From NCBI GenBank assembly GCA_964387865.1, contig CAYLXC010000002.1, positions 18,676 to 82,675 of the forward strand: 64,000 nt of DNA. The letters run 5' to 3'. Below the pieces are notes generated by a model. That model was not told where the DNA came from. It saw only the letters and a list, made by a program, of their open reading frames with translations, and made no database searches. Every line of letters begins with the position of its first letter. The stretch's first letter is position 1. Positions 6,215 through 36,975 of the stretch are shown piece after piece. Source of the stretch: an uncultured Gammaproteobacteria bacterium. GTDB lineage: Bacteria; Patescibacteriota; Microgenomatia; Daviesbacterales; UBA10151. Made by a program: the position numbers and the translations under genes.

Positions 6215-6420
6215 TTTATTGGTTAGTTTTAGGGATATTAATCGTTGCAGCTGCTTCTTTTAAAAAGAGAGCATCATTCTATCTTTCTTTAGCTTTTTAT
6301 CTTTTTATGGCTGGAGCAATACTTAGAATTATCGGTATAAATGATATAGCAGAGCTAATAATGAGGATAAGCCTTATAGGATGGTTAGTTGGACTAGGTC
6401 TATCTTTTAAGCAGTTGTGA
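6202..6420 (+). CDS. Small polytopic membrane protein (72 aa); partner of the family-A gene
   Basis: ATG overlaps the stop of 4013..6214 (ATGGAAAGCATGA). There are 2-3 TM helices. 'DIAELIMRISLIGWLVG' is similar to 'DIGEFIMRLSFIFLLVG' in the small protein at 41331. Confidence 0.4.
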   Translation: MESMIYWLVLGILIVAAASFKKRASFYLSLAFYLFMAGAILRIIGINDIAELIMRISLIGWLVGLGLSFKQL

Positions 6421-18444: not shown

Positions 18445-18451
18445 AAATTAA

Positions 18452-19207: not shown

Positions 19208-19232
19208 TACTGTTACAATCTTCTTTGAGAAT

Positions 19233-20411: not shown

Positions 20412-20417
20412 ATTAAT

Positions 20418-21344
20418 ATGTCTGCCAAAAACATTCACACACTTCTGATTACCGGTTCAACTGGTTTGGTTGGATCAAGATTTGTTGAACTTTTTAAAAA
20501 CAATTTTTCAATCGTTACTATCGGAAGAAGTAATGTAGATAATCAGATAGATTTAACTTCCAAAGAAGAAGTATTCAGAACTATTCAATCATCTGATGCT
20601 GATGCTGTAATCAATTTTGCAGCTTACACTAATGTAGATGAAGCGGAAAAAGAAAAAGGAGATACAAAAGGAGAGGTATACACCATAAATACACTACTGC
20701 CATTTTGGCTTGCAAAAAGTTGCCAAACTTCCGGAAAGAAACTTTATCATATCTCGACCGATTATGTTTTTGATGGAAAACAAACGAATAGGTCCTACAC
20801 AGAAGAAGATATTCCTAAACCGGTTGACTGTTGGTATTCAATAACAAAATATGAAGGAGAAATTGGCGTTGCTAACGGTTTTAAAAAACAGGAAAATTTT
20901 TCAATTATTCGGATATCCTATCCATACAGCGGTGTTTATAAGAGAAAATTAGATGTTGCCAGAGCTATTATAGAAAGGTTGGTTAGGAAAGAGTCCTATT
21001 TTGGTATAACAGATCAGAAAGTAAAACCAACTAGTGTGGATGATATTGCAAATGCTTTAAATCTGCTGCTAAAAAAGAGGGTCTATGGTATATTTCATAT
21101 TGCAGGTAATTTTTCTCCAAATGAATACATTACTCCTTATGACTTTGCACTCAAAATTGCTGAAACTTTCGAATTGGATTCTTCGTTAATTAAGCCTATA
21201 ACCTTTTTAGAATTTTCAAAAGAAAGGATTACACCAAGGCCTCAACATACATGGCTTGATACTACAAAAATAGAATCGCTTGGTTTTAGTATTACTAATA
21301 CTAATCAAGCTCTAAATAGATTAAGACAACAATTTAACCACTAG
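20418..21344 (+). CDS. RmlD-like NAD(P)-dependent reductase/epimerase (dTDP-4-dehydrorhamnose reductase family SDR)
   Basis: 'LLITGSTGLVGSRFVEL' and 'YSITKYEGE' (YxxxK). About 300 aa. Paralog of 35274..36167. Confidence 0.6.
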   Translation: MSAKNIHTLLITGSTGLVGSRFVELFKNNFSIVTIGRSNVDNQIDLTSKEEVFRTIQSSDADAVINFAAYTNVDEAEKEKGDTKGEVYTINTLLPFWLAKSCQTSGKKLYHISTDYVFDGKQTNRSYTEEDIPKPVDCWYSITKYEGEIGVANGFKKQENFSIIRISYPYSGVYKRKLDVARAIIERLVRKESYFGITDQKVKPTSVDDIANALNLLLKKRVYGIFHIAGNFSPNEYITPYDFALKIAETFELDSSLIKPITFLEFSKERITPRPQHTWLDTTKIESLGFSITNTNQALNRLRQQFNH

Positions 21345-22077
21345 TAATTAAAAAATTTGCCTTTCTGATATTTAGGCGATGAAAGATATACTCTATGAGT
21401 AACCTTATATTTTCAATCCCATGTTTTATGGAACCAATAAGGTTAGGTGAGATAGCTTCTTTAGAGTACCTTTTTGTAACAGGTACCTCGGCAATTTTAA
21501 ATCCAAAGTAAACAGTTTGAATTATCAGCTGAGGATCAAAAAGATAACCATTACCATTTTTCATAAAAGGAATCGTTTTGAGTAGTTTCTTTGTATATCC
21601 TCTATATCCTGAATTAACTTCTATTAAATTTGTACCCAATACAAGATTAAAAAGTAGCGCAATTATCCTAAGTGATAATGATTTATAAACTGGTGTCTGA
21701 TTAATCCCGGTTGTTAAAAAACGCGATCCTAAGATTAGGTCCCCTTTGCCTTGCTTAAGTGCCCTTATAAACTTAGGTATTTCTCCACCATCATATTGTC
21801 CATCCGGATGCAACATTATGATATAATCCGCTTCCCTTTTTAAGCTTTCTGTATAGAGAGTTTTTTGATTGGCTCCATATCCTAAATTTCTTTTGTGAAC
21901 AATAGGTTTTATATCTAGACTTTTTATCACTTCAACAGTTCTATCTTTCGATCCATCATCAACTATAATGATCTCATCGACAAAAGACTTTGGAATTTTT
22001 ATATAAACATCCTTTAATGTCCTTTCCGAATTATAAGCAGGAATTACTACCAAAACTTTACCATCTCCGTCTTTCAT
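21334..22077 (-). CDS. GT2 polyprenyl-phosphate glycosyltransferase (DPM1/GtrB-like)
   Basis: 'VLVVIPAYNSERTL', 'EIIIVDDGSKDRT'. About 247 aa. Confidence 0.7.
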   Translation of the reverse strand: MKDGDGKVLVVIPAYNSERTLKDVYIKIPKSFVDEIIIVDDGSKDRTVEVIKSLDIKPIVHKRNLGYGANQKTLYTESLKREADYIIMLHPDGQYDGGEIPKFIRALKQGKGDLILGSRFLTTGINQTPVYKSLSLRIIALLFNLVLGTNLIEVNSGYRGYTKKLLKTIPFMKNGNGYLFDPQLIIQTVYFGFKIAEVPVTKRYSKEAISPNLIGSIKHGIENIRLLIEYIFHRLNIRKANFLITSG

Positions 22078-22130
22078 ATTTTAAATCACAAATGATAATA
22101 TCATAATAATGTCTGTTAACCAATTGACCC

Positions 22131-24002
22131 ATGAAGATAATTGCAGGTAGTTTCTTGATTGTTAAAATCTTTATTGTGATTTTGCTAGTATGGGCCATAC
22201 AAACCCTTTTTCTTCATGAGCTAGTTAATAACGGTATATCTGGAGACGACCTGGAATGGCTTTTCTATTTTCATGCATATAGAGGCGATCTTATTAGCCA
22301 GTTCCCTTTTATTTGGAATGATAGGACCATTTACATTGTACAAGAAATATATTATATGGGAATGCTGGAGGGTATTTTTGGCTTTTTAAATCTACCCGCT
22401 TTTCAACTGACCCATCTGTTATTTAAATCTCTGGCTACTTTATCATTATATTTCTTAATCTTCAGCTTGCTTAAAAACAGGCTTTTTGCTTTTTTAGCAG
22501 CATTCTTCTTTATTATTTCTTCCTCAACAACCGGGGTATTTGAACTAGTAGTGTATGGTACATGTTTCTTATCTATAAGCTTTATTTGTTTTTTCATTCT
22601 TTTTTATATCCAGTCTTTAAAAGATAGTAAAAAGATTTTACTAGCCTCACTATTTCTCTTTCTGGCACTTGTTCTATGTCCACCGAGAACTTTTCCTATC
22701 ATAGTAGTTCCTTTTGTTGTGGAATTAATTCGTTTGATTAGGAAATTTAGACCCTTTGTTTTTTTACGAAGACTATTAATTTTTTACTTTCTGCCATTTA
22801 CATTATTCGGGGGGGATGCAAGACATGTTACAGGGGGGTCATGGGTTGTTCATCTTTATGATTTTACAGCGGGCAATTATTATTCGATCACATACCCTCT
22901 TCAAGTACTCAGCTCTCTTTTTATTGATAAAAGCTTCCTGGAATATATTTTCGGCCAATGGAAGAATGTAAATTTAAATGTAGTTTTAGCATTACAGCTA
23001 CTCTTGCTTCCTTTCTCGATATTTCTGGGCTTAATCATAAAAACGAAGAAGCTCGGTATTTTCCTTGTTAAGATAACATTGTTAACTTTTCTCCTGCAAG
23101 CTATTCTGTATGTGCTTGGTTCCCTAAGCCATGATTTACCACCAGGGTTTGCTATTATACAAAAAGTAAATTTTAACACCATATCATTTTTACAAGCATC
23201 CCTGGGAGGATACCTCTTAATCTTTGGATTATTCTTAGGGTTTGAGTGCTGGCAGAATCAAAGGAATAATCATCTGATGAGGGTTTTAGTGGCAGCTTGG
23301 CTTTGGACAGTAATATCTTTAATTTTAATATGGTTTAGTGCTGGGGGAGTGCAGATAGCAGATCAAGTTGATCGAAGATATGTATTACTTACATCTTTAG
23401 GAGCTGTTGTTTTCACTGCTGGAATATTTACCTTAGCTATTGAAAGTTTACTGAAAATAAGAAATCGAGCTGCTAAAATATCATCACTTTTTCTAATATG
23501 TGTTGCCCTACTAACAATTACTTTTGGCAATTACAGATTTTTGGATCAATATTTTTATAAGAGAAATCAGGAGTTGGGTTTTGATTCTTCCTGGCAAAAA
23601 CTTATGTATCAACGGTTTCTAAACAAATTCGGAAAAGCTAACTTACATAAAGACGCCTTTATATACATAGATTTTAGTGGGAGTGAGGAGAAAGATAGAA
23701 TATTCTACACAAATTCAGTTGGAATTATTTATAAACTGATATATTATGAAGATGGTCACCTAATAAGGGATAACTGTAAGGCGGTAGTTCATGACCCCAG
23801 AGTTTTAAAGAAGTCTTATACTGTTGTCAATGGGGAAAAAGGTTTTATCTTTGATACCATCTGTGTCAATCCTGTTATAGGACAAGATGGTAAACCTCAT
23901 TACTATTCTTTGGATAATTTTTATGCTTATTCACTGCAAAATAGGGAATTTGTAGACATTAAGGAAAAAACTATAGCCGAGCTTGATCAAGCTGTACCTT
24001 AG
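22131..24002 (+). CDS. Family-B polytopic membrane protein (623 aa), GT-C-type glycosyltransferase candidate
   Basis: About 12-13 TM helices. First loop 'NGISGDDLEW' (acidic GT-C-like motif). C-terminal soluble region ends 'NFYAYSLQNREFVDIKEKTIAEL'. Confidence 0.5.
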   Translation: MKIIAGSFLIVKIFIVILLVWAIQTLFLHELVNNGISGDDLEWLFYFHAYRGDLISQFPFIWNDRTIYIVQEIYYMGMLEGIFGFLNLPAFQLTHLLFKSLATLSLYFLIFSLLKNRLFAFLAAFFFIISSSTTGVFELVVYGTCFLSISFICFFILFYIQSLKDSKKILLASLFLFLALVLCPPRTFPIIVVPFVVELIRLIRKFRPFVFLRRLLIFYFLPFTLFGGDARHVTGGSWVVHLYDFTAGNYYSITYPLQVLSSLFIDKSFLEYIFGQWKNVNLNVVLALQLLLLPFSIFLGLIIKTKKLGIFLVKITLLTFLLQAILYVLGSLSHDLPPGFAIIQKVNFNTISFLQASLGGYLLIFGLFLGFECWQNQRNNHLMRVLVAAWLWTVISLILIWFSAGGVQIADQVDRRYVLLTSLGAVVFTAGIFTLAIESLLKIRNRAAKISSLFLICVALLTITFGNYRFLDQYFYKRNQELGFDSSWQKLMYQRFLNKFGKANLHKDAFIYIDFSGSEEKDRIFYTNSVGIIYKLIYYEDGHLIRDNCKAVVHDPRVLKKSYTVVNGEKGFIFDTICVNPVIGQDGKPHYYSLDNFYAYSLQNREFVDIKEKTIAELDQAVP

Positions 24003-24026
24003 GCTAATTTGTTATTATAAAAGAAA

Positions 24027-25892
24027 ATGGGAAAAAATTTAGTCTTAATTGTGATCCTGATAATAATAGTTTTTGCTTCACAATTTATATTAGCTCGAAA
24101 ACAGCTTGATTATGGATTCTACAATGATGATTGGTATGTTCTAGGGTGGTATAAACAAGTTGTTGGAAATCCTATTTTGGATATGCCGAAAGCCTTCAAG
24201 GAGATTGGTCCTCACAACTTTGTTCATGCTTATTATATGGGGGTAATGTTTGATTTTTTTAAACTGAACTATCCTTACTACCATGTTATAAATACATTAC
24301 TTAAAGCTTTAGCTGTTTTAAGCTTTTTTCCTGTAGTTTATCTTCTGTTTAAGAGTAAATTCTTAGCCTTTTTAGCCACTTTTATTTTTGCAGTCCACTT
24401 CTCTCCATATGGAGTGATATACCATGTGATAGGAGGAGAAGGTTCTCTAGTTGTTATTTTTATGAATTTGTTTTTGGCAGTCTATATTTATTCTTCCCAA
24501 AAACATTTGCTTAACAATGTAAAAATTTTATTTCTACTACTTGCACTTCTTTTAACAACAGCTTCCTTTGAGATTACCAGGGCTTATCCGGTTTTATTAT
24601 TCTTGCCCTTTTTAGAATTTATAAATTTTTTTGTTAACAGAGCATCAACCAATGTTAAAGCAATACTCTTAAGACTTCTATTTCTCTATTCTCCATTCAT
24701 TTTCCTACTGGCTTACCATCCTTCAGCTCTAAACGAAATAAATTTTAACAAATTTATACGTATTATAGATTGGGGTAACTATCAACTAATCCTTACTATT
24801 TTTAGTTCATTTGGAAGTACTTTTGTTCCGGAAGGTCTGATAGATCAGTTAAATTTGTTTGCAAGAATAGGAGAGGGTGTTCTTTACAGGGATTTGGAAA
24901 CCTTTCTTACCTTCCTGATTTTTAGATTTTTGATAATCTCTATTCCGTTACTTATAGTCATAAGCTCATTGGTTGGTCTGAAGCCTAAATGGATTTTGAG
25001 AAGTTTATTTTTAATCATTAGTTTTTCGATCCTAGCCTTTTGGCTTGCTAATCATTGGTTGTATCTTGACCCTAAGCTTCGTGCCCCGGTTGATCCTTCA
25101 ACATATTTCATTCCAGCCTTAATTGGTTTGTTTGTATTTTCTTGCGCAATTTCATTTTTGATTGAGTGGTTTTATAATAGGGGAAATAATCTTCTTTTTT
25201 CGCTTGCCTTAGCCCCCATTTTTTCTCTTCTTTATACTTTTTTAACCTGGATTTTGGTTGATGATAATGCTATTTTTATGGGAGTTCATGCTTACTTGAA
25301 TATTCCTGCCATAGGATCCAGTTTATTTCTTGCGATACTGCTCTATTTGACCTTTCAAAAACTTTTATCTAATCAATCTAAAATAATTGGCAAATTTGTT
25401 GCCTCCTTCACTATCATTTATTTTTTATTTTTCATAACTTTCAGTGCACACCAGATTGATAAATTCTTCTCCTATTGGCTAAAAACTGGTTTTGCCGCTT
25501 CAGAACAGGAGCGTATGCATAATAGTTTTTGGAAGGAAGTTGGACTAGGTAAATCTGAAACTCAAGATCCAGTTCTGATTTACCACGATGGTTCACAAGA
25601 TAACGAAAATGGATACTTTTATGCTAATTCTTTTGTCTGGTCTATTCCAGCAATGTTGACTGTAGAAAAGGGTTTACCTTTTGATCCCGGCGGATATTGC
25701 AAAGCAGCGATGTCTTATAAAGATTTTGAAAACTTAAGAATTGAGGAAGTTAATGGTAAAAAAATGGTTGTTCAAAGTGGTTGTGGTAATGATCTTTATT
25801 ATTCCTTGGAAAACTTTTTTGCTTTTAAGATGATTAATCGGGATCTTGTTCCAATCAGATTGGAGGTTCTCAAACTGTTAGGAATTGAGTAA
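24027..25892 (+). CDS. Family-B polytopic membrane protein (621 aa), GT-C-type glycosyltransferase candidate
   Basis: 'YGFYNDDWYVLGW' first-loop motif, 'AYLNIPAIGSSLF' and C-terminal 'NFFAFKMINRDLVPIRLEVL'. Confidence 0.5.
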   Translation: MGKNLVLIVILIIIVFASQFILARKQLDYGFYNDDWYVLGWYKQVVGNPILDMPKAFKEIGPHNFVHAYYMGVMFDFFKLNYPYYHVINTLLKALAVLSFFPVVYLLFKSKFLAFLATFIFAVHFSPYGVIYHVIGGEGSLVVIFMNLFLAVYIYSSQKHLLNNVKILFLLLALLLTTASFEITRAYPVLLFLPFLEFINFFVNRASTNVKAILLRLLFLYSPFIFLLAYHPSALNEINFNKFIRIIDWGNYQLILTIFSSFGSTFVPEGLIDQLNLFARIGEGVLYRDLETFLTFLIFRFLIISIPLLIVISSLVGLKPKWILRSLFLIISFSILAFWLANHWLYLDPKLRAPVDPSTYFIPALIGLFVFSCAISFLIEWFYNRGNNLLFSLALAPIFSLLYTFLTWILVDDNAIFMGVHAYLNIPAIGSSLFLAILLYLTFQKLLSNQSKIIGKFVASFTIIYFLFFITFSAHQIDKFFSYWLKTGFAASEQERMHNSFWKEVGLGKSETQDPVLIYHDGSQDNENGYFYANSFVWSIPAMLTVEKGLPFDPGGYCKAAMSYKDFENLRIEEVNGKKMVVQSGCGNDLYYSLENFFAFKMINRDLVPIRLEVLKLLGIE

Positions 25893-25896
25893 CCAT

Positions 25897-27744
25897 TTAA
25901 AGTTGGGGTCTAATTTTTTCCATTATTTCTGACTTTATATTAATAATATCCTTATTTTGTAATTTGAATGCATAAAAATCTTTTAGAGGGAAAAACTTAT
26001 CTGCCCCACCAAAATCCTTATAGAAAAAGCCTTCTGTATTATTTGATAAACCATAGCTTGATATAAGTTTTTCTTCATCGTTAACCAAAAGAGCAACTGG
26101 GCAAGGTAATTTAGAATGGAATGGTCCATAAAGGTTGTACCACCTGTCAAATCTGTCAACCATAATAACGTTATGGGAGTATTCATTTTGCTGATCACCT
26201 TTTGTATATAAATAAAAAAATTTATTACAAGACTGCGGTTCTTCAATAAGTTTCCAAAATTGGTTTTTCATGCTGACTTGATCTGAGGCTCTCATCCCGC
26301 CGCTATCAAGAAACCTTTTTAGATATAATTGCATTTGGTCATTACTAAGGAAGAAATATGGTATTAATATTAAAAAAATAGCAGGAGCGAAATTTTTAAG
26401 AATTTTGTTGTTTTTGAATTTTGTATAAACATAAGTCAAAATAGAGGCAATCGCTGCCGAGATACCCATGCTGGGGAGGGTTGAATAACCATTTATTCCG
26501 AGCGGTATATAAACATGATCTTGTAGAATCCAGGTAAACAATATAGAAGTTAGCGCAAAAGACATTCCTAGAAGGTATAGTTTAAGGTATATATTCTGTT
26601 TATCATTTTGCCACTGTTTAAATATAAAGATTGTTAAAACAGTAATATAGATTCCAAATAGAGCAGCAGGAGTATAGGTTGTAGGGTCGTAATACTTTTT
26701 TATATCTGGGGGTAAATTTAAGGCATGGTCAATTATTAAAAAAACAATTAACTGCAGAATAAAATTTATAATGAAAACTAGAAAAAAAAATTTAAGCGGT
26801 TTTTTTGATAGAACTTTTGATAAAAAAAGCGTGAGAGATCCAAGAATTACCAAAGGACCACCAATAAAAAAGGGTATAAAACTTTCTAAATTCCAGGATG
26901 CGGAACTAAGAAACTTCAGCCCATCACCTACTAAGAAAAGACCACCTATTGTTGTAAAAGGAGTAAGGAATACTTGTAAATTTCCTAAGTATGCATTGCG
27001 TATATTTGCTACAAAGTTTCCATAGGGAGTTCCCTGGTTTCCCATGACAATAAGAAAGACAACGAAGGGTAAAAGAAATATTATGAGGGTTTTTGAGATC
27101 CATAAAAGATTAGAAAGCGATTTGTCTTTTAAATATATTATAGCCCCAAGAAAGATAATAAACATTAGGATTGGATACGCCCTTATCGGATTAATAAAAA
27201 AAGAAAAGAATAAGAATACAGAAGTTAGTATGGTCCATAAAATATTTTTGGGTCTTTTTTTATAAAGCAAGTAAAAGAAGATGAAAAAAATGTTCATTGC
27301 AGGCATTAATAAATAATCTTGCGTTCTGGATACCATTTCAAATGATCCAATAGAACCATAATGTATAGAAAATATAAGTGCGGAGATAAAAGCTAGTAAA
27401 CGAGTGTTAAATACAACTTGAATTAAGATATAGAAACTTATAATAGATAAAATTTTAAAAATTAAGCTGGTTATCTGATATGCTTCGTAATTAAAGCCAA
27501 ATAAGCTGAAAAGAATACCACTATAATAAATATGAGGGGCATGATAGGGTCCTGCATCCTGCCATACCTGATTAAATTTTAAAAAGGGGTTTGATCCAAG
27601 ACTCGAAAAATCAGAGAAGAACCAAACATCATCTGGAGAAAAACCAAATTCCAAATGGGGTTTTAGGATTAAGCTTTGGGAAAAACTTATAAGCAGAATA
27701 AATATTAATAAAAAAAGCCATTCCTTCTTAAAATAAGATATCAT
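25897..27744 (-). CDS. Family-B polytopic membrane protein (615 aa), GT-C-type glycosyltransferase candidate (inverted copy)
   Basis: 'FGFSPDDVWFFSDF', C-terminal 'DFYAFKLQNKDIINIKSEIMEK'. Confidence 0.5.
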   Translation of the reverse strand: MISYFKKEWLFLLIFILLISFSQSLILKPHLEFGFSPDDVWFFSDFSSLGSNPFLKFNQVWQDAGPYHAPHIYYSGILFSLFGFNYEAYQITSLIFKILSIISFYILIQVVFNTRLLAFISALIFSIHYGSIGSFEMVSRTQDYLLMPAMNIFFIFFYLLYKKRPKNILWTILTSVFLFFSFFINPIRAYPILMFIIFLGAIIYLKDKSLSNLLWISKTLIIFLLPFVVFLIVMGNQGTPYGNFVANIRNAYLGNLQVFLTPFTTIGGLFLVGDGLKFLSSASWNLESFIPFFIGGPLVILGSLTLFLSKVLSKKPLKFFFLVFIINFILQLIVFLIIDHALNLPPDIKKYYDPTTYTPAALFGIYITVLTIFIFKQWQNDKQNIYLKLYLLGMSFALTSILFTWILQDHVYIPLGINGYSTLPSMGISAAIASILTYVYTKFKNNKILKNFAPAIFLILIPYFFLSNDQMQLYLKRFLDSGGMRASDQVSMKNQFWKLIEEPQSCNKFFYLYTKGDQQNEYSHNVIMVDRFDRWYNLYGPFHSKLPCPVALLVNDEEKLISSYGLSNNTEGFFYKDFGGADKFFPLKDFYAFKLQNKDIINIKSEIMEKIRPQL

Positions 27745-27777
27745 TTTAGTTTGTAACTGATATATAATAAGGCAAAA
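27745..27777. promoter_or_regulatory. Compact divergent promoter between two family-B genes
   Basis: A 33-nt spacer containing 'TGATATATAAT' (extended -10-like TATAAT) about 10 nt upstream of the GTG start at 27778. Confidence 0.3.
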
Positions 27778-29709: not shown

Positions 29710-29726
29710 ATATTTGTGGTATCATC

Positions 29727-31088
29727 ATGGAGTTTAAAAGAGAAATGCCAAAGAAAACTTTAAATGCTTTTTATGATTTGGTTATAGTAGGAGGCCTTGG
29801 TCATGTAGGTCTTCCATTAGGTATTGCATTTGCAGAAAAAGGACTTAAAGTTTGCCTTTATGATATTGATAAGAGTAAAGGTGAAATGGTCAAAAAAGGT
29901 AGTATACCTTTTATAGAATATGGTGCACAAGAAATTTTGGAAAAAGTATTAAAGGCAGGAACCCTTACAGTTTCCTATGATATTAAAGATATATCAAAGG
30001 CTAAATATGTAATTGTAACTATTGGTACTCCAGTGGATGAACACCTTACTCCAAAAACAAGAGCTTTTTTGGAATTTTTTGAAAATATTCGAGATTATTT
30101 AAACCCTAATCAAATAATAATTATTCGAAGTACAGTTTATCCTAATACCTGTCAACAGCTGCTAAGGATGCTAGGAAATGGTAAGCAGTGGCATATAGCA
30201 TATTGTCCAGAACGGATTACCGAGGGATATGCTATTAAAGAGTTAAAAGAACTGCCACAAATTGTAGCAGGTTTGAGTGAGCATGCAATAAATAATGCTG
30301 CAGCATTATTTAGTACAATTTCCACAAAAATTATAAAAACTGCAATGGGAGAGGCGGAATTGGTTAAATTATTTTCAAATGCTTGGAGATATATTCATTT
30401 CGCCTTGGCAAATCAATTTTATATGATCTCTTATAGATTTGGAGTTGATTATGAAAGAGTTCGTTGGGCGATGAAAGAAGGTTATGAAAGAGCAGCCACC
30501 TTGCCAGTTGCAGGTTTCGCCGCAGGACCATGCCTTTTAAAAGACACCATGCAGCTTGTGGCATTTGATAGCAATAATTTTCTTTTGGGACATGCGGCAA
30601 TGATGATTAATGAAGGCTTACCAAATTTTATTGTTGAGGATCTTCGCAAAAGATATGATTTACAGAAAACTAAAGTGGGAATTTTAGGCATGGCTTTTAA
30701 AGCGGATGTAGATGATATAAGAGACTCCTTATCATATAAGTTAGGAAAAATTCTTAGATTTCACGGTGCCCAGGTTTATTACTGTGATGAATATGTCAAA
30801 AATCCTACATTTTCATCTAAAGAAAAACTAATCAAAGAATGCGATGTGATAATTATAGGAGTTCCACACTCTGCCTATAAAAGACTTGTTATGCCAGAAA
30901 AAGTAGAAGTTGTAGATTTATGGGGTGTTACTGCTGGAGGTAGGCGTACAATCCCAAAGGGCTATATAACTTCTGAATATAGAGCTATTGATTCTTTTGG
31001 TCAAACTAGTGCTAATCAATATGCGGAAGGTTCTACTTTTCAACTCGCAGTCAGAATGAAAAGGTCAACTAAATCAACAAGTAAGTGA
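29727..31088 (+). CDS. Nucleotide-sugar dehydrogenase (UDP-glucose/GDP-mannose 6-dehydrogenase family)
   Basis: 'FYDLVIVGGLGHVGLPLGIAFAEKGLKVCLYDID' NAD-binding region and the catalytic-region 'FAAGPCLLKD' (GGSCFPKD-like). Confidence 0.75.
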   Translation: MEFKREMPKKTLNAFYDLVIVGGLGHVGLPLGIAFAEKGLKVCLYDIDKSKGEMVKKGSIPFIEYGAQEILEKVLKAGTLTVSYDIKDISKAKYVIVTIGTPVDEHLTPKTRAFLEFFENIRDYLNPNQIIIIRSTVYPNTCQQLLRMLGNGKQWHIAYCPERITEGYAIKELKELPQIVAGLSEHAINNAAALFSTISTKIIKTAMGEAELVKLFSNAWRYIHFALANQFYMISYRFGVDYERVRWAMKEGYERAATLPVAGFAAGPCLLKDTMQLVAFDSNNFLLGHAAMMINEGLPNFIVEDLRKRYDLQKTKVGILGMAFKADVDDIRDSLSYKLGKILRFHGAQVYYCDEYVKNPTFSSKEKLIKECDVIIIGVPHSAYKRLVMPEKVEVVDLWGVTAGGRRTIPKGYITSEYRAIDSFGQTSANQYAEGSTFQLAVRMKRSTKSTSK

Positions 31089-32089
31089 AAATACCTCAGG
31101 TAATGAAAAAAAGATTTCTGGTTACAGGTGGGGCGGGATTTATTGGCAGTGCCTTAGTAAGGGTTTTGGTGAATGATGGCAAAAGCGTTAGAGTATTGGA
31201 TAATGAGTTCCGTGGAGAAGTAGATAGATTGAAGGATATTAGGGATAAATTTGAAATGATAAATGGAGATATCAGAGATCCTAAATTAGTTGTGAAGGTT
31301 TGTCGAGGTATAGATAGTGTTATTCATCTTGCCTATATTAACGGTACCCAGTTTTTCTATACAAAACCTGAGTTGGTACTTGAGGTTGGAGTTAAAGGGA
31401 TAGTTAATATTTTGGACGGGTGTATAAAAAATAATGTAGGTGAGTTATTTCTAGCTTCAACTTCAGAAGTTTATCAAACCCCAAAGATTATTCCTACTCC
31501 TGAAACAGTTCCCATGGTTATTCCGGATCCACTAAATCCCAGATATTCTTATGGTGGGGGGAAAATAATTAGTGAGCTGATGGCTATAAATTATGGACGA
31601 AAATATTTTAAACGTGCTGTAATTTTTAGACCGCATAATGTTTATGGTCCTGATATGGGTTGGGAACATGTTGTACCTCAACTTATCTTAAGTATTAAAA
31701 ATTTAATAGAAAGGAATAAAAAAAGTAATACTATCCATTTACCAATTCAAGGATCAGGAGATGAGACAAGAGCCTTTATTTATATAGATGATTTTCTTGA
31801 GGGACTTAAACTTGTAATAGATAAGGGTGAACATTTGGGAATTTATCATATTGGTACCATGGATGAAGTATCAATTAAAGAACTTGCAAAACAAATAGGT
31901 TACCATTTTGGTAGAAAGATTATAGTATTGCCAGGAGAATTGACAAAAGGAAGTACCAAACGTCGTTGTCCGGATATTAGTAAACTAAAAAAGTTAGGGT
32001 TTAAACCGAAAGTTTCACTTAAAGAGGGTTTACAGGGGACAGTGAAATGGTATAATGCTTTCGCCCATTTACAACCTAAATATGAGTAA
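31085..32089 (+). CDS. NAD-dependent epimerase/dehydratase (UDP-glucuronate decarboxylase/4-epimerase-like extended SDR)
   Basis: 'FLVTGGAGFIGSALVRVL' and 'YSYGGGKIISE' (YxxxK). The GTG at 31085 overlaps the upstream stop (GTGA); an alternative ATG lies at 31103. Confidence 0.75.
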   Translation: MKIPQVMKKRFLVTGGAGFIGSALVRVLVNDGKSVRVLDNEFRGEVDRLKDIRDKFEMINGDIRDPKLVVKVCRGIDSVIHLAYINGTQFFYTKPELVLEVGVKGIVNILDGCIKNNVGELFLASTSEVYQTPKIIPTPETVPMVIPDPLNPRYSYGGGKIISELMAINYGRKYFKRAVIFRPHNVYGPDMGWEHVVPQLILSIKNLIERNKKSNTIHLPIQGSGDETRAFIYIDDFLEGLKLVIDKGEHLGIYHIGTMDEVSIKELAKQIGYHFGRKIIVLPGELTKGSTKRRCPDISKLKKLGFKPKVSLKEGLQGTVKWYNAFAHLQPKYE

Positions 32090-33356
32090 AGGTAAGAAAA
32101 AACTGGCTTTTGGAACCGGGAAAAGTATAGTGGTAGAAAATTGCCAAGTCTGTAACAACCCTAATTTAGAATCGATACTATTTTTAGGTTACTTACCTTC
32201 GGTAAATCAGATGTATCCAATAGGATCGAGACCCAAAGAGCAACCGAGTTACCCTGCCGAACTTCTTCATTGTACAAAGTGTCATTTGGTTCAACTGGGC
32301 TTAATAGTTGATCCAAAAATTATTTTTCCGAAAGAATATCCATATACCTCTGGAACAACCAAAATTCTAAGAGATAATTTTGCCGAACTTTCTTTAGAAG
32401 CTAAAAAGATTTTAGATTTAAAGTCAGATGATTTGGTGATTGATATAGGGTCAAATGACGGTACACTTTTAAATAACTTCAAAGATGATGTTAGAGTACT
32501 GGGAATAACCCCTGAAGAAATTGGTCAACTTGCCATTGAAAAGGGAATACCAACAATTTTGGACTATTTTACATCCCGTACAGTGAAGAAAGTCAAGAAG
32601 AAATATGGCAAGGCCAAGCTTGTAACAGCTGCTAATGTATTTGCTCATATAGAAGATGTAAGTGTGGTTTTGGAAAATATTTTAAATCTCCTAAAACCAG
32701 ATGGGGTGTTTATTTCGGAATCGCATTATCTTTATTCACTAATTAAATTTGTTCAATATGATACTATCTACCATGAACATTTAAGATATTACTCACTGGC
32801 TTCCCTTAAATATATTTTAAATATGCATGGACTGGAAGTTTTTCATGCAAAACAAATTCCTACTCATGGAGGATCAATCAGAGTTTATGCCGCAAGAAAG
32901 GGTCTATATCCTGTTAAGGATTCTGTAAACAAGCTACTTCAAAAAGAAAAGCCATATGTAACAAACAAAAAAAGTTTATTAAAATTTAAGGAGAATGTTG
33001 TCTTATCAAAACTTGAACTTCACTCCTTACTTTGGGATCTGAAGAGAAAGGGGAAAAAGATATATGGCATTTCTGCCCCGTCCAGAGCCAGCACTTTAAT
33101 AAATTATGTTGGGTTGGACGATGACATAATAGATTGCATTTTAGAAATTAAAGGATCATATAAAATAGGAAATTACATACCTGGAACTCTTATTCCTATT
33201 GTGGAAGAGAGCAGCTTATTTGAGCAGCAACCTGACTATGCTTTGCTTTTATCTTGGCATATTGCTAAAGAATTGATGCCAAAACTTAAACAAAAAGGAT
33301 TTAAAGGAGACTTCATAGTTCCTCTCCCCAGGCCTTTGATTATAAAAGGCTTTTGA
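32082..33356 (+). CDS. Zn-ribbon-containing SAM-dependent (C-)methyltransferase, NDP-sugar C-methyltransferase-like
   Basis: 'CQVCNNPNLESILFLGYLPSVNQ...CTKCHLVQL' N-terminal zinc-binding domain, 'VIDIGSNDGTLLNNF' motif I and a roughly 150-aa C-terminal extension. The ATG at 32082 overlaps the upstream stop (ATGAGTAA); the ORF track start is 32055. Confidence 0.55.
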   Translation: MSKGKKKLAFGTGKSIVVENCQVCNNPNLESILFLGYLPSVNQMYPIGSRPKEQPSYPAELLHCTKCHLVQLGLIVDPKIIFPKEYPYTSGTTKILRDNFAELSLEAKKILDLKSDDLVIDIGSNDGTLLNNFKDDVRVLGITPEEIGQLAIEKGIPTILDYFTSRTVKKVKKKYGKAKLVTAANVFAHIEDVSVVLENILNLLKPDGVFISESHYLYSLIKFVQYDTIYHEHLRYYSLASLKYILNMHGLEVFHAKQIPTHGGSIRVYAARKGLYPVKDSVNKLLQKEKPYVTNKKSLLKFKENVVLSKLELHSLLWDLKRKGKKIYGISAPSRASTLINYVGLDDDIIDCILEIKGSYKIGNYIPGTLIPIVEESSLFEQQPDYALLLSWHIAKELMPKLKQKGFKGDFIVPLPRPLIIKGF

Positions 33357-35247
33357 GTCCTAGAGTTTGCATAATCTCATCTCTTATATCATATAGATCT
33401 CTATTTTTAAACCTAAATGCGTAAAAGTTTTCTGGTTTATAGAAAACACCACTAAAGAGAAATCCTTTGATACCATCCTTTTCCACTATTGCCTCCTTTA
33501 GCTTTTCTGGACAGACTTTCTCATTTCCGCCGCAAAGAAAATAAGTTCTTAAAAGTAGAGGAGTAAGTTCTGGCTTTAAGACTCTATCTTCCTGAAACAT
33601 CATCCAGAAATTGAAACCTGCCATAATTATTGTCTCATTAAAATAGCTATTATTATGGTCTTGTGATTCATCAAAATAAAAAACTGAGGGTTCAGTCAAA
33701 CTAAAATTTTTAAGGTATGACTTTAGTTTTCCCTTCATTCTAATATGTTCAGATGCCTTGGTTCCTGCCACGTTTAATTCATAGTCAAAGTAATTAGCTA
33801 TAGACTTACTATAAATTACAAACATAAGAAGAGGTAGTAAAAAAACAGCTAATGCAAAAGGCCTAGTGAAATTTTTTGGATATAACTTTTCATAAATTAA
33901 GACAAAAGCAGTTGCAATAAGAAGACTTACCCCTATAGCTGGTATAGTAAGGTAGCGGTGTATACCTACAAATACTAAAGCTATATCAGCGGGTAACCAT
34001 GTAATAAATATGAAAAGGAATGCCATTGCAGGACCCATAAATAAACAAAGGGTAAGATTATCCTTCATTTTTCTATCAATCCATTCAAGGAAAAAAGCGC
34101 ATGCTAAAGAAAGAACAAACATCCCGACTAAAGCATTGGGCATTACAAAACTTGGGTCAAAATATATCCTTGAAGAAGGATCAATACCTAACCGACGGGT
34201 AGCAATATAGAAGGAAGCTAGAAAAAGAGTTATGAGTATGGTCAATGTTACGAGTATAAACTTACGAGGGTTTTTAGATAAAAGATAACCTGAAATTAAA
34301 ATAATATTGCCAAAAATAAATAAAGGCCCCCCTAACAAGAATTTTAAATAACCAGTTAAATTATCTAAATTAATTACGCCTAGAGGTAAAGGATATTCTT
34401 TTGGTAGAAACATACTTCCTAAAGAAGCAAATGGTGTGAAAAGTAGGTGTGAATTTCCTTCAAATATTTTTTGGAAAAGCCCCATGCTGTTTCCTATAAA
34501 AAAAGGAATCATGTCGCTTTGAATATTTGGCCTAATAAATATTAGAAGAATTACTGGGGTAAAAAGTAGTAATAATCTTTTTGCCCCTAAAACAATAGAG
34601 GATTTGGAGAATTTTTGACTGCAAATATAGAGAAACTCACCTATAATTACAAGCGGCATTAGGGGATACATTCTCTCTGTTGCCAGAAAAAAGGCGAGAT
34701 AAAAGGTGAGTATGACAGAAATTAGCAATCTCCAATCTGTTCTTTTTTTTTGGGCAAGATACCAATATATCCAAAGAAATATATTCATAAATGTAATTCC
34801 GAGATAATTTATGGTAGTCATTACCGTATAGAGAGCTGCCACAGTTGTAAAAGAATAAGCATAGATTAATGTTCCAAGTGTGGCGATTAATTTTCGTTTG
34901 GTGATTATGTAAAATAAAGGAAAGGCAGTAATAGTTGAAAGAAACTTTAAAATATAAGCTACTATATTATATTGGTAGAAGTCTAAACCAAAAAAATATT
35001 CCTGAATACCTAAATAATAATATTGTGTTGCATAGACTCCGCTTCTATTCCACATGTTTAAAAAACTTTCAAGTGAAAAGGGATTTTTTAGATGTTTAAA
35101 TTGCAATAACCCCCCCCAATCTATATCAGCAAAAGCGTAGCTTAGGTGAGGCTTGAGCATAAAATATTGTATCAGGGCAATTATCAAAGCTGTAAATAAA
35201 AACAACCAAATACTTGAATGGGTTTTAAGACTATTTAACATACGCAA
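33340..35247 (-). CDS. Family-B polytopic membrane protein (635 aa), GT-C-type glycosyltransferase candidate
   Basis: 'YAFADIDWGGLLQF', 'RYLTIPAIGVSLL', C-terminal 'NFYAFRFKNRDLYDIRDEIMQTL'. Confidence 0.5.
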   Translation of the reverse strand: MRMLNSLKTHSSIWLFLFTALIIALIQYFMLKPHLSYAFADIDWGGLLQFKHLKNPFSLESFLNMWNRSGVYATQYYYLGIQEYFFGLDFYQYNIVAYILKFLSTITAFPLFYIITKRKLIATLGTLIYAYSFTTVAALYTVMTTINYLGITFMNIFLWIYWYLAQKKRTDWRLLISVILTFYLAFFLATERMYPLMPLVIIGEFLYICSQKFSKSSIVLGAKRLLLLFTPVILLIFIRPNIQSDMIPFFIGNSMGLFQKIFEGNSHLLFTPFASLGSMFLPKEYPLPLGVINLDNLTGYLKFLLGGPLFIFGNIILISGYLLSKNPRKFILVTLTILITLFLASFYIATRRLGIDPSSRIYFDPSFVMPNALVGMFVLSLACAFFLEWIDRKMKDNLTLCLFMGPAMAFLFIFITWLPADIALVFVGIHRYLTIPAIGVSLLIATAFVLIYEKLYPKNFTRPFALAVFLLPLLMFVIYSKSIANYFDYELNVAGTKASEHIRMKGKLKSYLKNFSLTEPSVFYFDESQDHNNSYFNETIIMAGFNFWMMFQEDRVLKPELTPLLLRTYFLCGGNEKVCPEKLKEAIVEKDGIKGFLFSGVFYKPENFYAFRFKNRDLYDIRDEIMQTLGLKSLL

Positions 35248-35273
35248 AATATATTATAGTACACTAATTCGGT
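35248..35273. promoter_or_regulatory. Compact divergent promoter (family-B gene on -, RmlD-like gene on +)
   Basis: A 26-nt spacer containing 'TATATTATAGT' -10-like elements. Confidence 0.25.
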
Positions 35274-36167
35274 ATGATTAGAAAAGATAAAGATAAAAGG
35301 ATTTTACTTTTTGGAGGGAGTGGCTTAGTTGGCTCAAGGATTATAAAGCTCCTTAATAATCGTTTCCAAATAATTGCCCCCCCACATATGAAAGTGGATG
35401 TTACCCAAAGAGCCCAAGTAGATAAAATCATTGAACAGGTTTTGCCAGATCATATAATTTATGCTGTGGGTTTAACAAGTGTGGATAAAGCGGAAGAGAA
35501 TTCTAAATTGGCTTATTTATTAAACACAAAGGCACCCACTATGGTGGCCGAAAAGGCTAGTCAACTTCACATTCCAATACTTTATTTCTCAACAGATGCT
35601 GTTTTTGATGGAACAAAAAGCATCAGTCCTTATGAGGAAAGCGATAAGACTAACCCTATCTCAATGTATGGTAAATCAAAGCTTTTGGGTGAGCAAATGG
35701 TTCTGGCCCTTTCTGACAAAAATTGTGTAGTAAGAATTATTACGGTTTACTCACACGTCACAACTGAGAAAAGAGGCTTTGTTCAAGCTGTACTTGAGGC
35801 TTTATCAAAAGGAGAAAAATTTCAAGGAATTACAGATCAAATAATCAATCCGATCTATGTTGATGATATAGTAAAGGCCATATATCTTTTGATTAATAGT
35901 AAAAGCTTTGGCATATATCATTTAGGTGCAACAGATTATATTACAAACTATAATTTTATTAGGAAACTAGCCAAACACCTTAGTTTGGATGAGAAGCTGA
36001 TAGAAGGGATAACCTTTAAGGAATTTTTTAAAAATAAATTGGCAAAGAGAACCAAATATTGTTGGCTAGATACTTCTCTTTTCAGAAAAGAATTTGGTGA
36101 AAACGTCCTTCATACTGTGGATGAAAGCATCATGCTTTTTAAGAAAAATTTAAAGAGGCCATCTTGA
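35274..36167 (+). CDS. RmlD-like NAD(P)-dependent reductase/epimerase (paralog of 20418..21344)
   Basis: 'ILLFGGSGLVGSRIIKLL' and 'YGKSKLLGE' (YxxxK). 297 aa. Confidence 0.6.
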   Translation: MIRKDKDKRILLFGGSGLVGSRIIKLLNNRFQIIAPPHMKVDVTQRAQVDKIIEQVLPDHIIYAVGLTSVDKAEENSKLAYLLNTKAPTMVAEKASQLHIPILYFSTDAVFDGTKSISPYEESDKTNPISMYGKSKLLGEQMVLALSDKNCVVRIITVYSHVTTEKRGFVQAVLEALSKGEKFQGITDQIINPIYVDDIVKAIYLLINSKSFGIYHLGATDYITNYNFIRKLAKHLSLDEKLIEGITFKEFFKNKLAKRTKYCWLDTSLFRKEFGENVLHTVDESIMLFKKNLKRPS

Positions 36168-36885
36168 AGTGTTTAAATCTTTTAACTATCCCCCAAAGGT
36201 ACCAATAAATATATCTTGGTAACCATTTAAATAGTTTGAATTTAGATTTGCCAAAATGTCTTTCTTTCCAAATAGATGGGGTTTCTGTGATTTTATATCC
36301 CAAAAGATAAGCTTTGATTAAAATTTCCATGGCAAATTCCCAGCCCCCAAGGGATTGAATTTTTATTCTTTTTAAAACTTGCCTTCGATACATCTTATAT
36401 CCATTAGTTAAATCAGAAGTTGGAATACCAAGAAGGATGGGGGTAGTAAGTCCTGCAATTTTTGAGAGAATAGTTTTTATAAATCTTCCGCCTACTTGTT
36501 TCCCACCTTTTGAATAACGGGTAGCACAGACAATGTCAAAATCCCTCTTTGCCAGTTGATACATTTTATTGATAGTTTCTGGGTCATCAGCCAAATCTGC
36601 TGGCATAACCACAATAAATTCTCCCAAGCTTTCCATAAAACCAGTTTTAACAGCATTGATCAAACCACCACCCCAAGCATTCTTTACAAGCTTCACATTT
36701 GGAATTTTATTCTTAAGTTTTTTTATAACTGTTATTGTGTCGTCATTATCGAAATCATATACAATAATTACCTCATGTTCACTCTTTACAGCAGATTCCA
36801 AAGAATAAAGGAAGGCAGATATATTTGGACCCTCATTCAAAACAGGTACAATAATGCTGATTGGAAATTTTTGTTTAGTAAGCAT
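36139..36885 (-). CDS. GT2 polyprenyl-phosphate glycosyltransferase (DPM1/GtrB-like)
   Basis: 'ISIIVPVLNEGPNI', 'EVIIVYDFDNDDT', 'TNGYKMYRRQVL'. 248 aa. Confidence 0.7.
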   Translation of the reverse strand: MLTKQKFPISIIVPVLNEGPNISAFLYSLESAVKSEHEVIIVYDFDNDDTITVIKKLKNKIPNVKLVKNAWGGGLINAVKTGFMESLGEFIVVMPADLADDPETINKMYQLAKRDFDIVCATRYSKGGKQVGGRFIKTILSKIAGLTTPILLGIPTSDLTNGYKMYRRQVLKRIKIQSLGGWEFAMEILIKAYLLGYKITETPSIWKERHFGKSKFKLFKWLPRYIYWYLWGIVKRFKHFKMASLNFS

Positions 36886-36975
36886 AATCCCTATTAGTCT
36901 AGAATTATTTTATTTTTTAAACAAGAACCAATACAAAAAATTGCCAAAACAACATTGATATGATAGAAAAGGATT

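Follow-up and report, generated by a model that had tools for sequence, protein, structure and literature searches.

The Arn pathway (PmrHFIJKLM; Ugd, ArnA, ArnB, ArnC, ArnD and ArnT) places L-Ara4N on lipid A: a 6-dehydrogenase and a decarboxylase generate a UDP-4-keto-pentose, the 4-keto sugar is tailored, a GT2 glycosyltransferase loads the product onto undecaprenyl phosphate, and a GT-C enzyme transfers it outside. The DprE1/DprE2 system converts decaprenyl-P-ribose to decaprenyl-P-arabinose for Emb/Aft, and DprE2 is a classical SDR, unlike RmlD-type enzymes. Three-component Gtr-type systems (GtrA/GtrB/GtrV, CsbB/GtcA/YfhO, GacI/GacL, and the pentofuranose systems in Kelly et al. 2024, PMC11127046) combine a lipid-phosphate sugar synthase with a GT-C transferase and use further, auxiliary enzymes to vary the sugar. 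Colitose synthesis (Gmd, ColD, ColC) and that of the GDP-3,6-dideoxyheptoses of C. jejuni (PMC10440746) proceed by PLP/PMP-dependent C3-dehydration and then C4-reduction of an NDP-4-keto sugar, and the branched-chain deoxysugar pathways of antibiotic producers (TylC3, TcaB9, KijD1, MtmC) pair a 3-C-methyltransferase with a 4-ketoreductase.

Here we describe a glycan locus from an uncultured CPR bacterium (Daviesbacteria-like), contained in a 64-kb window (the whole stretch of DNA that was analysed). We consider it likely that soluble 4-ketoreductases encoded there finish rare NDP-sugars, that the cognate GT2 loads each sugar onto polyprenyl phosphate, and that GT-C enzymes carry out its transfer on the outer side of the membrane.

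Results

The locus carries two copies of a module, and an open reading frame check of the window confirmed the coordinates of all module genes. In copy 1, the RmlD-family NAD(P)H-dependent reductase RmlD1 (20418..21344, + strand) converges on GT2a (21334..22077, − strand) with an 11-bp overlap of their 3' ends; in copy 2, the RmlD-family reductase RmlD2 (35274..36167, +) converges on GT2b (36139..36885, −) with an overlap of 29 bp. The first-pass annotation had described RmlD-like reductases, DPM1/GtrB-like GT2s and GT-C enzymes in the same arrangement twice. Pfam, NCBIfam and PDB matches bear out the reductase and GT2 calls, and the fold bears out the GT-C call; the arrangement holds for the convergent overlapping pair, the only part laid out identically, but not for the family-B GT-C gene, whose place differs: past the GT2 in copy 1, upstream of the reductase in copy 2. 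Sequence comparison gives identities of 33%, 27% and 21% between the copies, and the sole DNA-level repeat is a 63-nt segment, 75% complementary, between the 3' ends of the family-B genes B4 and B5. Judged by these comparisons, the two copies are old, diverged paralogues.

Family B consists of five paralogues of ~620 amino acids with ~12 predicted hydrophobic segments each, all located between 22131 and 35247, where the annotation had implied two. B1 (22131..24002, +) aligns over its full length with B2–B5 at 21–24% identity, B4 (27778..29709, +) and B5 (33340..35247, −) are 35% identical, and B2 (24027..25892, +) and B3 (25897..27744, −) were recognized in the same paralogy comparison; a distant sixth member lies at 6400..7968 (−). 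We assigned the GT-C fold to the family with B5 as the modelled paralogue, and an aspartate in the first loop is invariant in the family alignment. No Pfam entry matched B1–B4 at E ≤ 10. Family B is a GT-C family outside the existing classification. AftD-like GT-C genes are also present in the window.

Both reductases carry the RmlD substrate-binding domain (PF04321, RmlD_sub_bind; E 3e-53 for RmlD1 and 8e-60 for RmlD2), a point that the annotation had put forward for checking. The motifs GxxGxxG, STD and YxxxK are present in RmlD1, in which no transmembrane segment was predicted. GT2a, of the DPM1/ArnC type, and GT2b, of the DPM1/GtrB/ArnC type, both match PF00535. GT2a matches PpgS and AglJ best in NCBIfam, and DPMS (5mlz) and ArnC best in the PDB; for GT2b the top matches are ArnC and PgfS in NCBIfam and, in the PDB, P. 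furiosus DPMS (5mlz, 93 bits, residues 5–243), followed by GtrB and ArnC. From these matches we propose that GT2a and GT2b are polyprenyl-phosphate sugar synthases.

Each module adjoins genes for rare-sugar synthesis. Only 7 bp upstream of the RmlD1 start ends a gene for a DegT-family, PMP-dependent sugar 3-dehydratase of the ColD/E1 type (19191..20411, +; PF01041), for which gene callers place the start at 19233, giving 392 aa. Its best NCBIfam match is RfbH (321 bits, under the RfbH cutoff) and its best PDB matches are E1 (3bcx, 239 bits) and ColD. In the alignment to E1, His206 falls on E1 His220, at the catalytic-lysine position, and the Fe-S cysteine loop of E1 is absent. A DegT gene lies immediately upstream of the RmlD1 orthologues in four related loci (L017, L019, L020 and L101), and the histidine at the catalytic position was confirmed in L017, L019 and L020. 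Of 4,6-dehydratases with a D-E motif that could feed the 3-dehydratase, none was found in the window, and the nearest SDR (9759–10715) is epimerase-like in appearance; in L019 only, the reductase/GT2 pair stands beside a probable 4,6-dehydratase, assigned by a sequence motif. Heptose-activation-like genes (GmhB, HddA, SIS, nucleotidyltransferase and transaldolase) are found just upstream of the 3-dehydratase. We propose that RmlD1 is an NDP-4-keto-3-deoxy-sugar 4-ketoreductase.

Module 2 is accompanied by an NDP-sugar 6-dehydrogenase of the Ugd/WecC type (29727..31088, +; PF03721, PF00984, PF03720; 282 bits against TIGR03026, above the cutoff), the proposed first step of its sugar pathway, by an extended SDR resembling UXS and ArnA (31085..32089, +), and by an NDP-4-keto-sugar 3-C-methyltransferase of the TylC3/TcaB9/MtmC family (32055..33356, +; PF08421, PF13489, PF08484), with best PDB matches of 190–230 bits to MtmC (4rv9, 230 bits), TcaB9 and KijD1. 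The top named PDB matches of the SDR are a GDP-sugar 4-epimerase (8rdg, 129 bits), human UXS1 (121 bits) and RmlB (108 bits). The SDR and UXS1 have the ASTSEVY motif and loop length in common, whereas 8rdg has SSSTVYG plus a gap; SDRs linked to the C-methyltransferase carry S[ST]SEVY, and RmlB-like controls carry STDE[VI]YG. Based on this one motif and the adjoining dehydrogenase, we propose that the SDR is an NDP-hexuronate decarboxylase releasing a 4-keto-pentose, although the GDP-sugar 4-epimerase outscores UXS1 by 8 bits. Enzymes of the UXS type normally reduce their own 4-keto intermediate, and the module-2 SDR would let it go. RmlD2 is the proposed 4-ketoreductase for the C-methylated 4-keto sugar.

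The convergent overlapping reductase/GT2 pair was found again in six loci (L006, L012, L017, L020, L101 and L103) of other Microgenomates, including Daviesbacteria and Curtissbacteria, and the module is therefore conserved in related genomes, where the annotation had suggested looking. In L017, L019 and L101 the RmlD1 orthologue comes with a GT2a orthologue (58–71% identity), and in L006, L012 and L103 the gene converging on the RmlD2 orthologue is a GT2b orthologue (63–70%). The two reductase clades thus each have a GT2 clade of their own, with co-variation holding down to 47% reductase identity. Because the pair recurs and its GT2 partner is clade-specific, we conclude that the pairing is not a chance product of a crowded glycan locus. 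RmlD2-clade genes (44–58% identity) occur with the SDR and the 3-C-methyltransferase in five of the six other loci examined (L006, L012, L014, L016 and L103), all with methyltransferase orthologues of 66–74% identity adjoining the reductase, and four of the five also have an NDP-sugar dehydrogenase. The 6-dehydrogenase is kept beside the SDR or the C-methyltransferase in L003, L006, L014, L016 and L103. The close relative L003 has the dehydrogenase, SDR and C-methyltransferase at 71–80% identity but no RmlD-like gene; in the reductase's place stand a formyltransferase and a Lys-type aminotransferase, next to the GT2, in an Arn-like layout. Both branches, reductase and aminotransferase, are present in L016.

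Alternatively, the GT2s could be ordinary Leloir enzymes of the cytoplasm that assemble a lipid-PP-linked repeat unit, adjacent to the reductases and GT-C genes only through the density of the locus. The window does hold ~10 GT2 and 5 GT4 genes among many sugar-modifying enzymes, all GT2 matches to named families, including DPMS, ArnC and PpgS, fall far under the curated NCBIfam equivalog cutoffs, and no transmembrane helices were predicted in GT2a or GT2b. We nevertheless think this unlikely: polyprenyl-phosphate glycosyltransferases are consistently the best matches and reach through the DPMS interface-helix region, the clade-specific pairing persists across distant reductases, the GT2 near the RmlD2 orthologue in L102 forms one protein with a GtrA_DPMS_TM domain and has PMT_2 GT-C genes after it, and at least 13 GT-C genes at the locus need lipid-phosphate sugar donors.

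RmlD1 and RmlD2 could also be dTDP-4-dehydrorhamnose or 6-deoxy-talose-type reductases supplied by rmlABC genes elsewhere in the genome, with the GT2s making polyprenyl-P-rhamnose. PF04321 and TIGR01214 are their best family matches, in the PDB RmlD2 matches RmlD structures best (~109 bits), and the window is part of a 163-kb contig. This reading appears improbable, as both TIGR01214 scores (173 bits for RmlD1, 210 for RmlD2) are below the cutoff of 224 and both reductases fall in separate clades (94% and 100% bootstrap, respectively), apart, at 86% bootstrap, from a canonical reference set of 14 RmlDs flanked by RmlA and RmlB. The window and the related loci lack both an RmlC cupin and an RmlB of the STDE type, genes of the rmlB or rmlC type went undetected, the one NTP_transferase being ambiguous, and the conserved partners are a 3-dehydratase or C-methyltransferase instead. 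As a control, 80 generic RmlD loci had RmlB- and RmlA-like neighbors, with 0 C-methyltransferase and 0 family-B genes. Thus the separation from canonical dTDP-rhamnose RmlD, on which the annotation had staked its proposal, stands in the tree and in gene content, but the reductases still sit among enzymes of soluble sugars.

Least probable is the annotation's first option, that the sugar loaded by the GT2 is a 4-keto or other precursor and that the RmlD-like enzyme reduces it on the carrier as DprE2 does: although the reductases are outside canonical RmlD and, in both clades, always paired with a convergent, overlapping lipid-phosphate GT2, and an SDR epimerase alters a lipid-linked pentofuranose in a published three-component system (PMC11127046), such reduction is disfavored because the partners make or need just the nucleotide-linked 4-keto sugar that a soluble 4-ketoreductase uses, and it is further opposed by the binding of NDP-sugars in solved members of the 3-dehydratase, 3-C-methyltransferase and decarboxylase families, by the swap in L003 to an aminotransferase and formyltransferase, enzymes whose substrates in the Arn pathway are UDP-sugars, by the absence of both a UbiA-type phosphoribosyltransferase and an FAD oxidase from the window in domain searches, and by sequence predictions giving the reductases no membrane-binding segment.

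Discussion

The partners fit the annotation's second option, a reduced NDP-sugar made for loading onto the carrier. We infer the substrates, step order, lipid carrier, flippase and acceptor as follows. Each module would be the supply line for one rare sugar destined for glycosylation outside the cytoplasmic membrane, with the RmlD-like proteins, as soluble NAD(P)H-dependent 4-ketoreductases of the cytoplasm, catalysing the last step of a nucleotide-sugar pathway. In module 1, the ColD-like 3-dehydratase would yield an NDP-4-keto-3-deoxy sugar that RmlD1 then reduces at C4. In module 2, the NDP-sugar 6-dehydrogenase and UXS/ArnA-like decarboxylase would generate an NDP-4-keto-pentose, followed by TcaB9/MtmC-like C-methylation and C4 reduction by RmlD2. 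The cognate GT2 of the DPM1/ArnC type, whose gene meets the reductase gene tail to tail, would load polyprenyl phosphate with the finished sugar. Once the sugar has been flipped, family-B GT-C enzymes may pass it to a surface glycan or protein.

The system is most likely a variant of three-component/Arn-type glycosylation whose chemistry is not new, and the annotation overstated the coupling as unusual: the arn operon already follows this logic, combining dedicated sugar-nucleotide tailoring genes with a GT2 for lipid-phosphate loading and a GT-C enzyme. What is novel is the GT-C family outside the classification, together with possible 3-C-methyl and 3-deoxy sugars. Classical Gtr-type systems use common UDP-Glc or UDP-GlcNAc with no dedicated pathway, whereas each of the two GT2s described here goes with a rare-sugar pathway; GT2a and GT2b are without the C-terminal transmembrane helices of GtrB, and sequence searches recognized no GtrA- or MATE-type flippase. 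DprE1/DprE2 likewise joins a reductase to a lipid-phosphate donor for GT-C enzymes but differs in that the partners here are NDP-sugar enzymes. The 3-dehydratase shares with ColD the histidine substitution and the missing Fe-S loop; unlike in 3,6-dideoxy sugar pathways, the reductase is RmlD-type, neither a 4,6-dehydratase nor an epimerase was identified nearby, and the product apparently goes to a lipid-phosphate GT2 rather than to Leloir glycosyltransferases. The antibiotic pathways, with a 3-C-methyltransferase of the same family, use a dTDP-4-keto-2,6-dideoxyhexose, in contrast to the uronic-acid-derived 4-keto-pentose and the cell-surface glycosylation proposed here. Closest in overall logic is Arn, of which L003 has the full set minus ArnD: dehydrogenase, formyltransferase, Lys-type aminotransferase, GT2 and decarboxylase-like SDR.

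Two ancient reductase/glycosyltransferase modules

Two modules in the window combine an RmlD-like reductase, a family-2 glycosyltransferase (GT2) and a gene of family B, a set of paralogous membrane proteins: RmlD1 (20418-21344, +) with GT2a (21334-22077, -), and RmlD2 (35274-36167, +) with GT2b (36139-36885, -). The first-pass annotation was good at the level of genes, and all of its ORF coordinates match ours. What repeats between the modules is the convergent reductase(+)/GT2(-) pair, with 3' overlaps of 11 and 29 bp; the family-B gene, which had been read as part of the same repeated arrangement, flanks the pair on the GT2 side in module 1 and on the reductase side in module 2. Family B comprises five full-length paralogues, B1 to B5, starting at 22131, 24027, 25897 (-), 27778 and 33340 (-), and a distant sixth at 6400-7968 (-). 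The module copies are ancient, with identities of 33%, 27% and 21% between paralogous proteins. We rejected a recent module duplication because a DNA-repeat search of 20000-37000 showed none, the sole repeat being a short stretch in which the 3' ends of B4 and B5 match.

The window's sequence matches a metagenome contig of 163 kb (ENA ERZ27284378), with Candidatus Daviesbacteria and further Microgenomates/Patescibacteria as relatives. Three related assemblies, CAZFYQ01, CAZGFG01 and CAYNFQ01 (loci L005, L007, L010 and L018), are labelled 'uncultured Gammaproteobacteria' yet carry Daviesbacteria-type loci, and these labels are probably wrong because the gene content is Patescibacteria-like.

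RmlD-family reductases distinct from canonical RmlD

The RmlD-like assignment held for both reductases, which carry PF04321 (E of 3e-53 for RmlD1 and 8e-60 for RmlD2; 181 and 203 bits against a gathering cutoff of 27). Their best family match is TIGR01214 (rmlD), at 172.9 bits for RmlD1 and 209.6 bits for RmlD2, both under the equivalog cutoff of 224.05. The GxxGxxG, S-T-D and YxxxK motifs are all kept (GSTGLVGS, STDYVFDG and YSITK in RmlD1; GGSGLVGS, STDAVFDG and YGKSK in RmlD2), with cofactor and catalytic motif positions invariant within the RmlD1 clade, and no membrane segment is predicted in either protein. The closest solved relatives are RmlD structures for RmlD2, and MAT2B followed by RmlD for RmlD1.

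Grouping with canonical RmlD, which the first-pass annotation had named as evidence against its reading, was not seen. In a neighbor-joining tree of a small sample, which included 14 RmlDs validated by RmlA and RmlB neighbours, the RmlD1 and RmlD2 clades were recovered with 94% and 100% bootstrap support and grouped together at 86%, separate from the validated RmlDs, to which they are 27-29% identical. Comparing the RmlD1-clade alignment with metagenomes returned only distant generic RmlDs (26-39% identity), which were therefore used as a control set and not as clade contexts. These 80 generic loci have RmlB- and RmlA-like neighbours, a DegT-family gene anywhere in the locus in only two cases, and no C-methyltransferase or family-B gene. 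No rmlC (PF00908 cupin) or STDE-type 4,6-dehydratase was found in the window or the clade loci. We rejected canonical dTDP-rhamnose synthesis, an unlikely role given the sub-cutoff scores, the separate clade and the lack of rmlB- and rmlC-type neighbours. Judged by sequence, RmlD1 and RmlD2 are RmlD-family proteins but not RmlD equivalogs.

Gene context of module 2

Directly 5' of B5 and RmlD2 lie three genes, encoding an NDP-sugar 6-dehydrogenase (29727-31088; TIGR03026 above cutoff), an extended SDR (31085-32089) and a sugar 3-C-methyltransferase (32055-33356) that matches MtmC (230 bits), TcaB9 and KijD1 in the PDB. The best PDB score of the SDR is to a GDP-sugar 4-epimerase (8rdg, 129 bits), with human UDP-glucuronate decarboxylase UXS1 close behind (121 bits). 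In its ASTSEVY motif and loop length the SDR agrees with UXS1, whereas the epimerase has SSSTVYG and a gap, and RmlB-like control proteins read STDE[VI]YG at this motif. The S-E versus D-E difference presumably tells decarboxylases from 4,6-dehydratases. Although the 4-epimerase scores best, motif and loop favour a UXS/ArnA-like decarboxylase over either a 4-epimerase or an RmlB-type 4,6-dehydratase, and with moderate confidence we regard the SDR as a putative decarboxylase of this kind. TylC3/TcaB9-family 3-C-methyltransferases need a 4-keto sugar, and a 4-ketoreductase comes next in known pathways.

Besides the sugar C-methyltransferase, six SAM-dependent methyltransferase genes, one of them FkbM-type, are present in the window (1564-3920, 7968-8591, 18452-19207, 50290-50985), which suggests that its glycans are heavily methylated.

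Gene context of module 1

A DegT-family gene (19191/19233-20411) precedes the reductase/GT2 pair of module 1, with RmlD1 7 bp downstream. The closest solved relatives of the DegT protein are the CDP-4-keto-6-deoxyglucose 3-dehydrase E1 (239 bits) and ColD. True aminotransferases have their catalytic Lys at the position of E1 His220. His206 of the window protein aligns with this residue, which is mutated from His to Lys in PDB 3bb8, and the Cys-rich Fe-S loop of E1 is missing, as it is from ColD. From NDP-4-keto-6-deoxy sugars such 3-dehydratases make NDP-4-keto-3,6-dideoxy sugars for a C4-reductase to complete, as in the example of C. jejuni GDP-3,6-dideoxyheptose (PMC10440746).

We recognised no 4,6-dehydratase within the window to feed module 1. 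Upstream lies a heptose-activation-like cluster (13834-17628) encoding a transaldolase/FSA-like protein, a GmhB-like phosphatase, a nucleotidyltransferase, a SIS isomerase and an HddA-like GHMP kinase, every score being under the equivalog cutoff. Because of these upstream genes, a heptose is a possible substrate of module 1, and the cluster may feed it.

Conservation in related loci

We examined five loci of the RmlD1 clade: L017 (71% identity), L101 (58%), L018 (57%), L019 (53%) and L020 (48%). Four have a DegT gene immediately upstream, its His verified in L017, L019 and L020. A GT2 lies at most two genes away in all five, four of these GT2s (40-71% identity) fall in the GT2a clade, and three loci have a family-B HMM match. 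In L018 (194-6585) the module is co-directional and contains two reductases, in the single-strand order family B, RmlD1-like, family B, GT2 and a second RmlD-like gene.

Among six RmlD2-clade loci (L006, L103, L012, L014, L016 and L102; 44-58% identity), five contain the SDR and C-methyltransferase pair and four the dehydrogenase. In three, a GT2 of the GT2b clade (63-70% identity) is convergent on the reductase, and the rest have another GT2 at most three genes away; the GT2 of L102 carries a fused GtrA_DPMS_TM domain, and PMT_2 GT-C genes come after it. Family B stands beside the pair only in the Daviesbacteria-like loci. Membrane proteins of 440-570 aa that adjoin the pair in L012, L014 and L016 were ruled out as family B by HMM and are unassigned or weakly PMT_2-like; the family-B link is therefore lineage-restricted and the reductase/GT2 pair wider. 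The distant relative L010 has the dehydrogenase, SDR, a DUF5667 gene, the C-methyltransferase, co-directional and overlapping GT2 and RmlD-like genes, and family B. Mere co-location in a locus this dense in glycan genes is an improbable explanation for the pair, which recurs in relatives, bearing out the conservation on which the first reading depended, with the GT2 clade co-varying with the reductase clade.

The close relative L003 has a dehydrogenase, SDR and C-methyltransferase 71-80% identical to the window's and no RmlD-like gene. Its order (11941-18634) is dehydrogenase, formyltransferase, Lys-type DegT aminotransferase, GT2 (39% identity to GT2b), NUDIX, decarboxylase-like SDR and C-methyltransferase, a set that suggests synthesis of a C-methylated 4-formamido-pentose donor. 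Based on this Arn-like layout, the aminotransferase would stand at the step of RmlD2, that is, on a nucleotide-linked 4-keto sugar. L016 contains both branches, reductase and aminotransferase, each with its own GT2.

Candidate lipid-phosphate glycosyltransferases

GT2a and GT2b match PF00535, and in both databases their nearest relatives are characterised polyprenyl-phosphate glycosyltransferases: the top NCBIfam matches are PpgS, AglJ, ArnC and PgfS, and the best PDB matches are P. furiosus DPMS, GtrB and ArnC. All scores fall far under the equivalog cutoffs. Both proteins lack the C-terminal TM helices of GtrB, ArnC and archaeal DPMS: hydrophobic segments of TM length are missing from GT2b, the single one in GT2a is internal to the GT-A domain, and the alignment to DPMS reaches residue 262, ahead of the DPMS TM domain. 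No membrane partner of the human DPM1 type was identified for either. Two more GT2s (17638-18444 and 50982-51692) have dolichyl- or undecaprenyl-phosphate glycosyltransferases as best matches (AglJ, ArnC and a Haloferax hexose transferase), so the window holds four candidate lipid-phosphate sugar synthases.

An unclassified GT-C family

Family-B proteins are 21-35% identical to each other. They are predicted to contain about 12 hydrophobic segments and end in a soluble domain of about 150 aa. None of the six paralogues has a Pfam match at E<=10, neither B1 nor B5 (the two scanned) has an NCBIfam match, and none of 71 homologues has a precomputed Pfam domain. Because Pfam and NCBIfam gave nothing, we took the fold from structure prediction. 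B5 was modelled with AlphaFold2 from 41 sequences at high confidence (pLDDT 91.4, pTM 0.91), and the model's top Foldseek matches in the PDB are all GT-C enzymes (DPY19, STT3, ArnT and PglB), so the multi-helix membrane domain is predicted to have a GT-C fold. D43 is invariant and D41 at least 90% conserved in the 41 sequences, both in the first extracytoplasmic loop directly after TM1 (helix 10-36). Catalytic acids in GT-C enzymes occupy the position just after TM1. Family B is thus an unclassified GT-C family, outside existing sequence families such as PMT_2, GT-C_AftD, YfhO and STT3; we found no paper on GT-C glycosyltransferases of Patescibacteria.

Small DUF5667 proteins of 160-185 aa are encoded in related loci (L004 9376-9915, L005 9370-9927, L010 2160-2654 and L103 5583-6065), immediately upstream of family-B genes in three and between SDR and C-methyltransferase in L010. 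A second expanded family in the window consists of five very large AftD-like membrane proteins of up to 1162 aa, mutually 25-38% identical (8-1555, 4013-6214, 37850-41338, 41816-44455 and 44468-47893), three with weak PF11847 matches. With three PMT_2 genes (52679-54055, 54783-56222 and 62386-63849) and the six family-B genes, the window has at least 13 putative GT-C genes. Two small proteins (41310-41648, 112 aa, and 47880-48221, 113 aa), for each of which four hydrophobic segments are predicted, start inside the last bases of a large AftD-like gene. We dropped their reading as GtrA-like flippases, as they have no significant Pfam match; they may be flippase- or anchor-like partners.

Discussion

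Based on the domain identities, the GT-C fold, the clade-specific partnerships and the reductase/aminotransferase swap observed here, a route from soluble NDP-sugar 4-ketoreductases through GT2 lipid loading to GT-C transfer is the probable role of these modules. RmlD1 and RmlD2 would be soluble 4-ketoreductases that finish rare NDP-sugars, one a 3-deoxy sugar and one a 3-C-methyl sugar that may be a pentose. Loading of the finished sugars onto polyprenyl phosphate would fall to GT2a and GT2b, a putative flippase would carry the loaded carrier across the membrane, and family-B enzymes would pass the sugar to a surface acceptor. That CPR bacteria deliver previously undescribed 3-C-methyl-pentose and 3-deoxy sugars via lipid-phosphate donors and a new GT-C family is a more tentative proposal, for which we stop short of even odds.

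The headline mechanism of the first-pass annotation was modification of the sugar while on the lipid carrier. On such a reading, the paired GT2 would first load a 4-keto sugar onto polyprenyl phosphate and the RmlD-like enzyme would reduce it only then, a DprE2-like on-carrier maturation of hexose or pentose donors for GT-C enzymes. This would explain the retention of the two genes as an overlapping convergent pair and has a published parallel in a Citrobacter SDR epimerase that alters a lipid-linked pentofuranose (PMC11127046), but it is very unlikely here. The reductases keep company with NDP-sugar enzymes, and Pfam scans of the listed non-nested window ORFs of at least 90 aa revealed neither of the partners of DprE1/DprE2, a UbiA-type polyprenyl-phosphate phosphoribosyltransferase and an FAD-dependent oxidase.

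If reduction instead takes place on soluble NDP-sugars, as we favour, two RmlD subfamilies with roles unrelated to rhamnose and one unclassified GT-C family are defined by the locus, which also points to an Arn-like way of making a branched (C-methyl) pentose. Genomes of Patescibacteria (CPR) are tiny, yet at least 64 kb of this one is given over to surface glycosylation. The results are useful starting points for work on cell-surface chemistry in uncultured episymbionts and for the annotation of 'dTDP-4-dehydrorhamnose reductase' look-alikes.

As in the Arn pathway, the window has a sugar 6-dehydrogenase, a putative 4-keto-forming decarboxylase, a GT2 lipid loader and a GT-C enzyme. The ArnB aminotransferase, ArnA formyltransferase and ArnD deformylase are missing from module 2; the aminotransferase and formyltransferase are present in L003, laid out as Ugd, ArnA as two proteins, ArnB and ArnC, and no ArnD-type deformylase was seen in the window or related loci. 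The proposed sugars are undescribed for a lipid-phosphate route, and the locus reveals no new biochemical principle. Calling the arrangement unusual overstated the case: in its working it resembles the Arn pathway and three-component Gtr-type glycosylation, although by sequence it is a member of neither.
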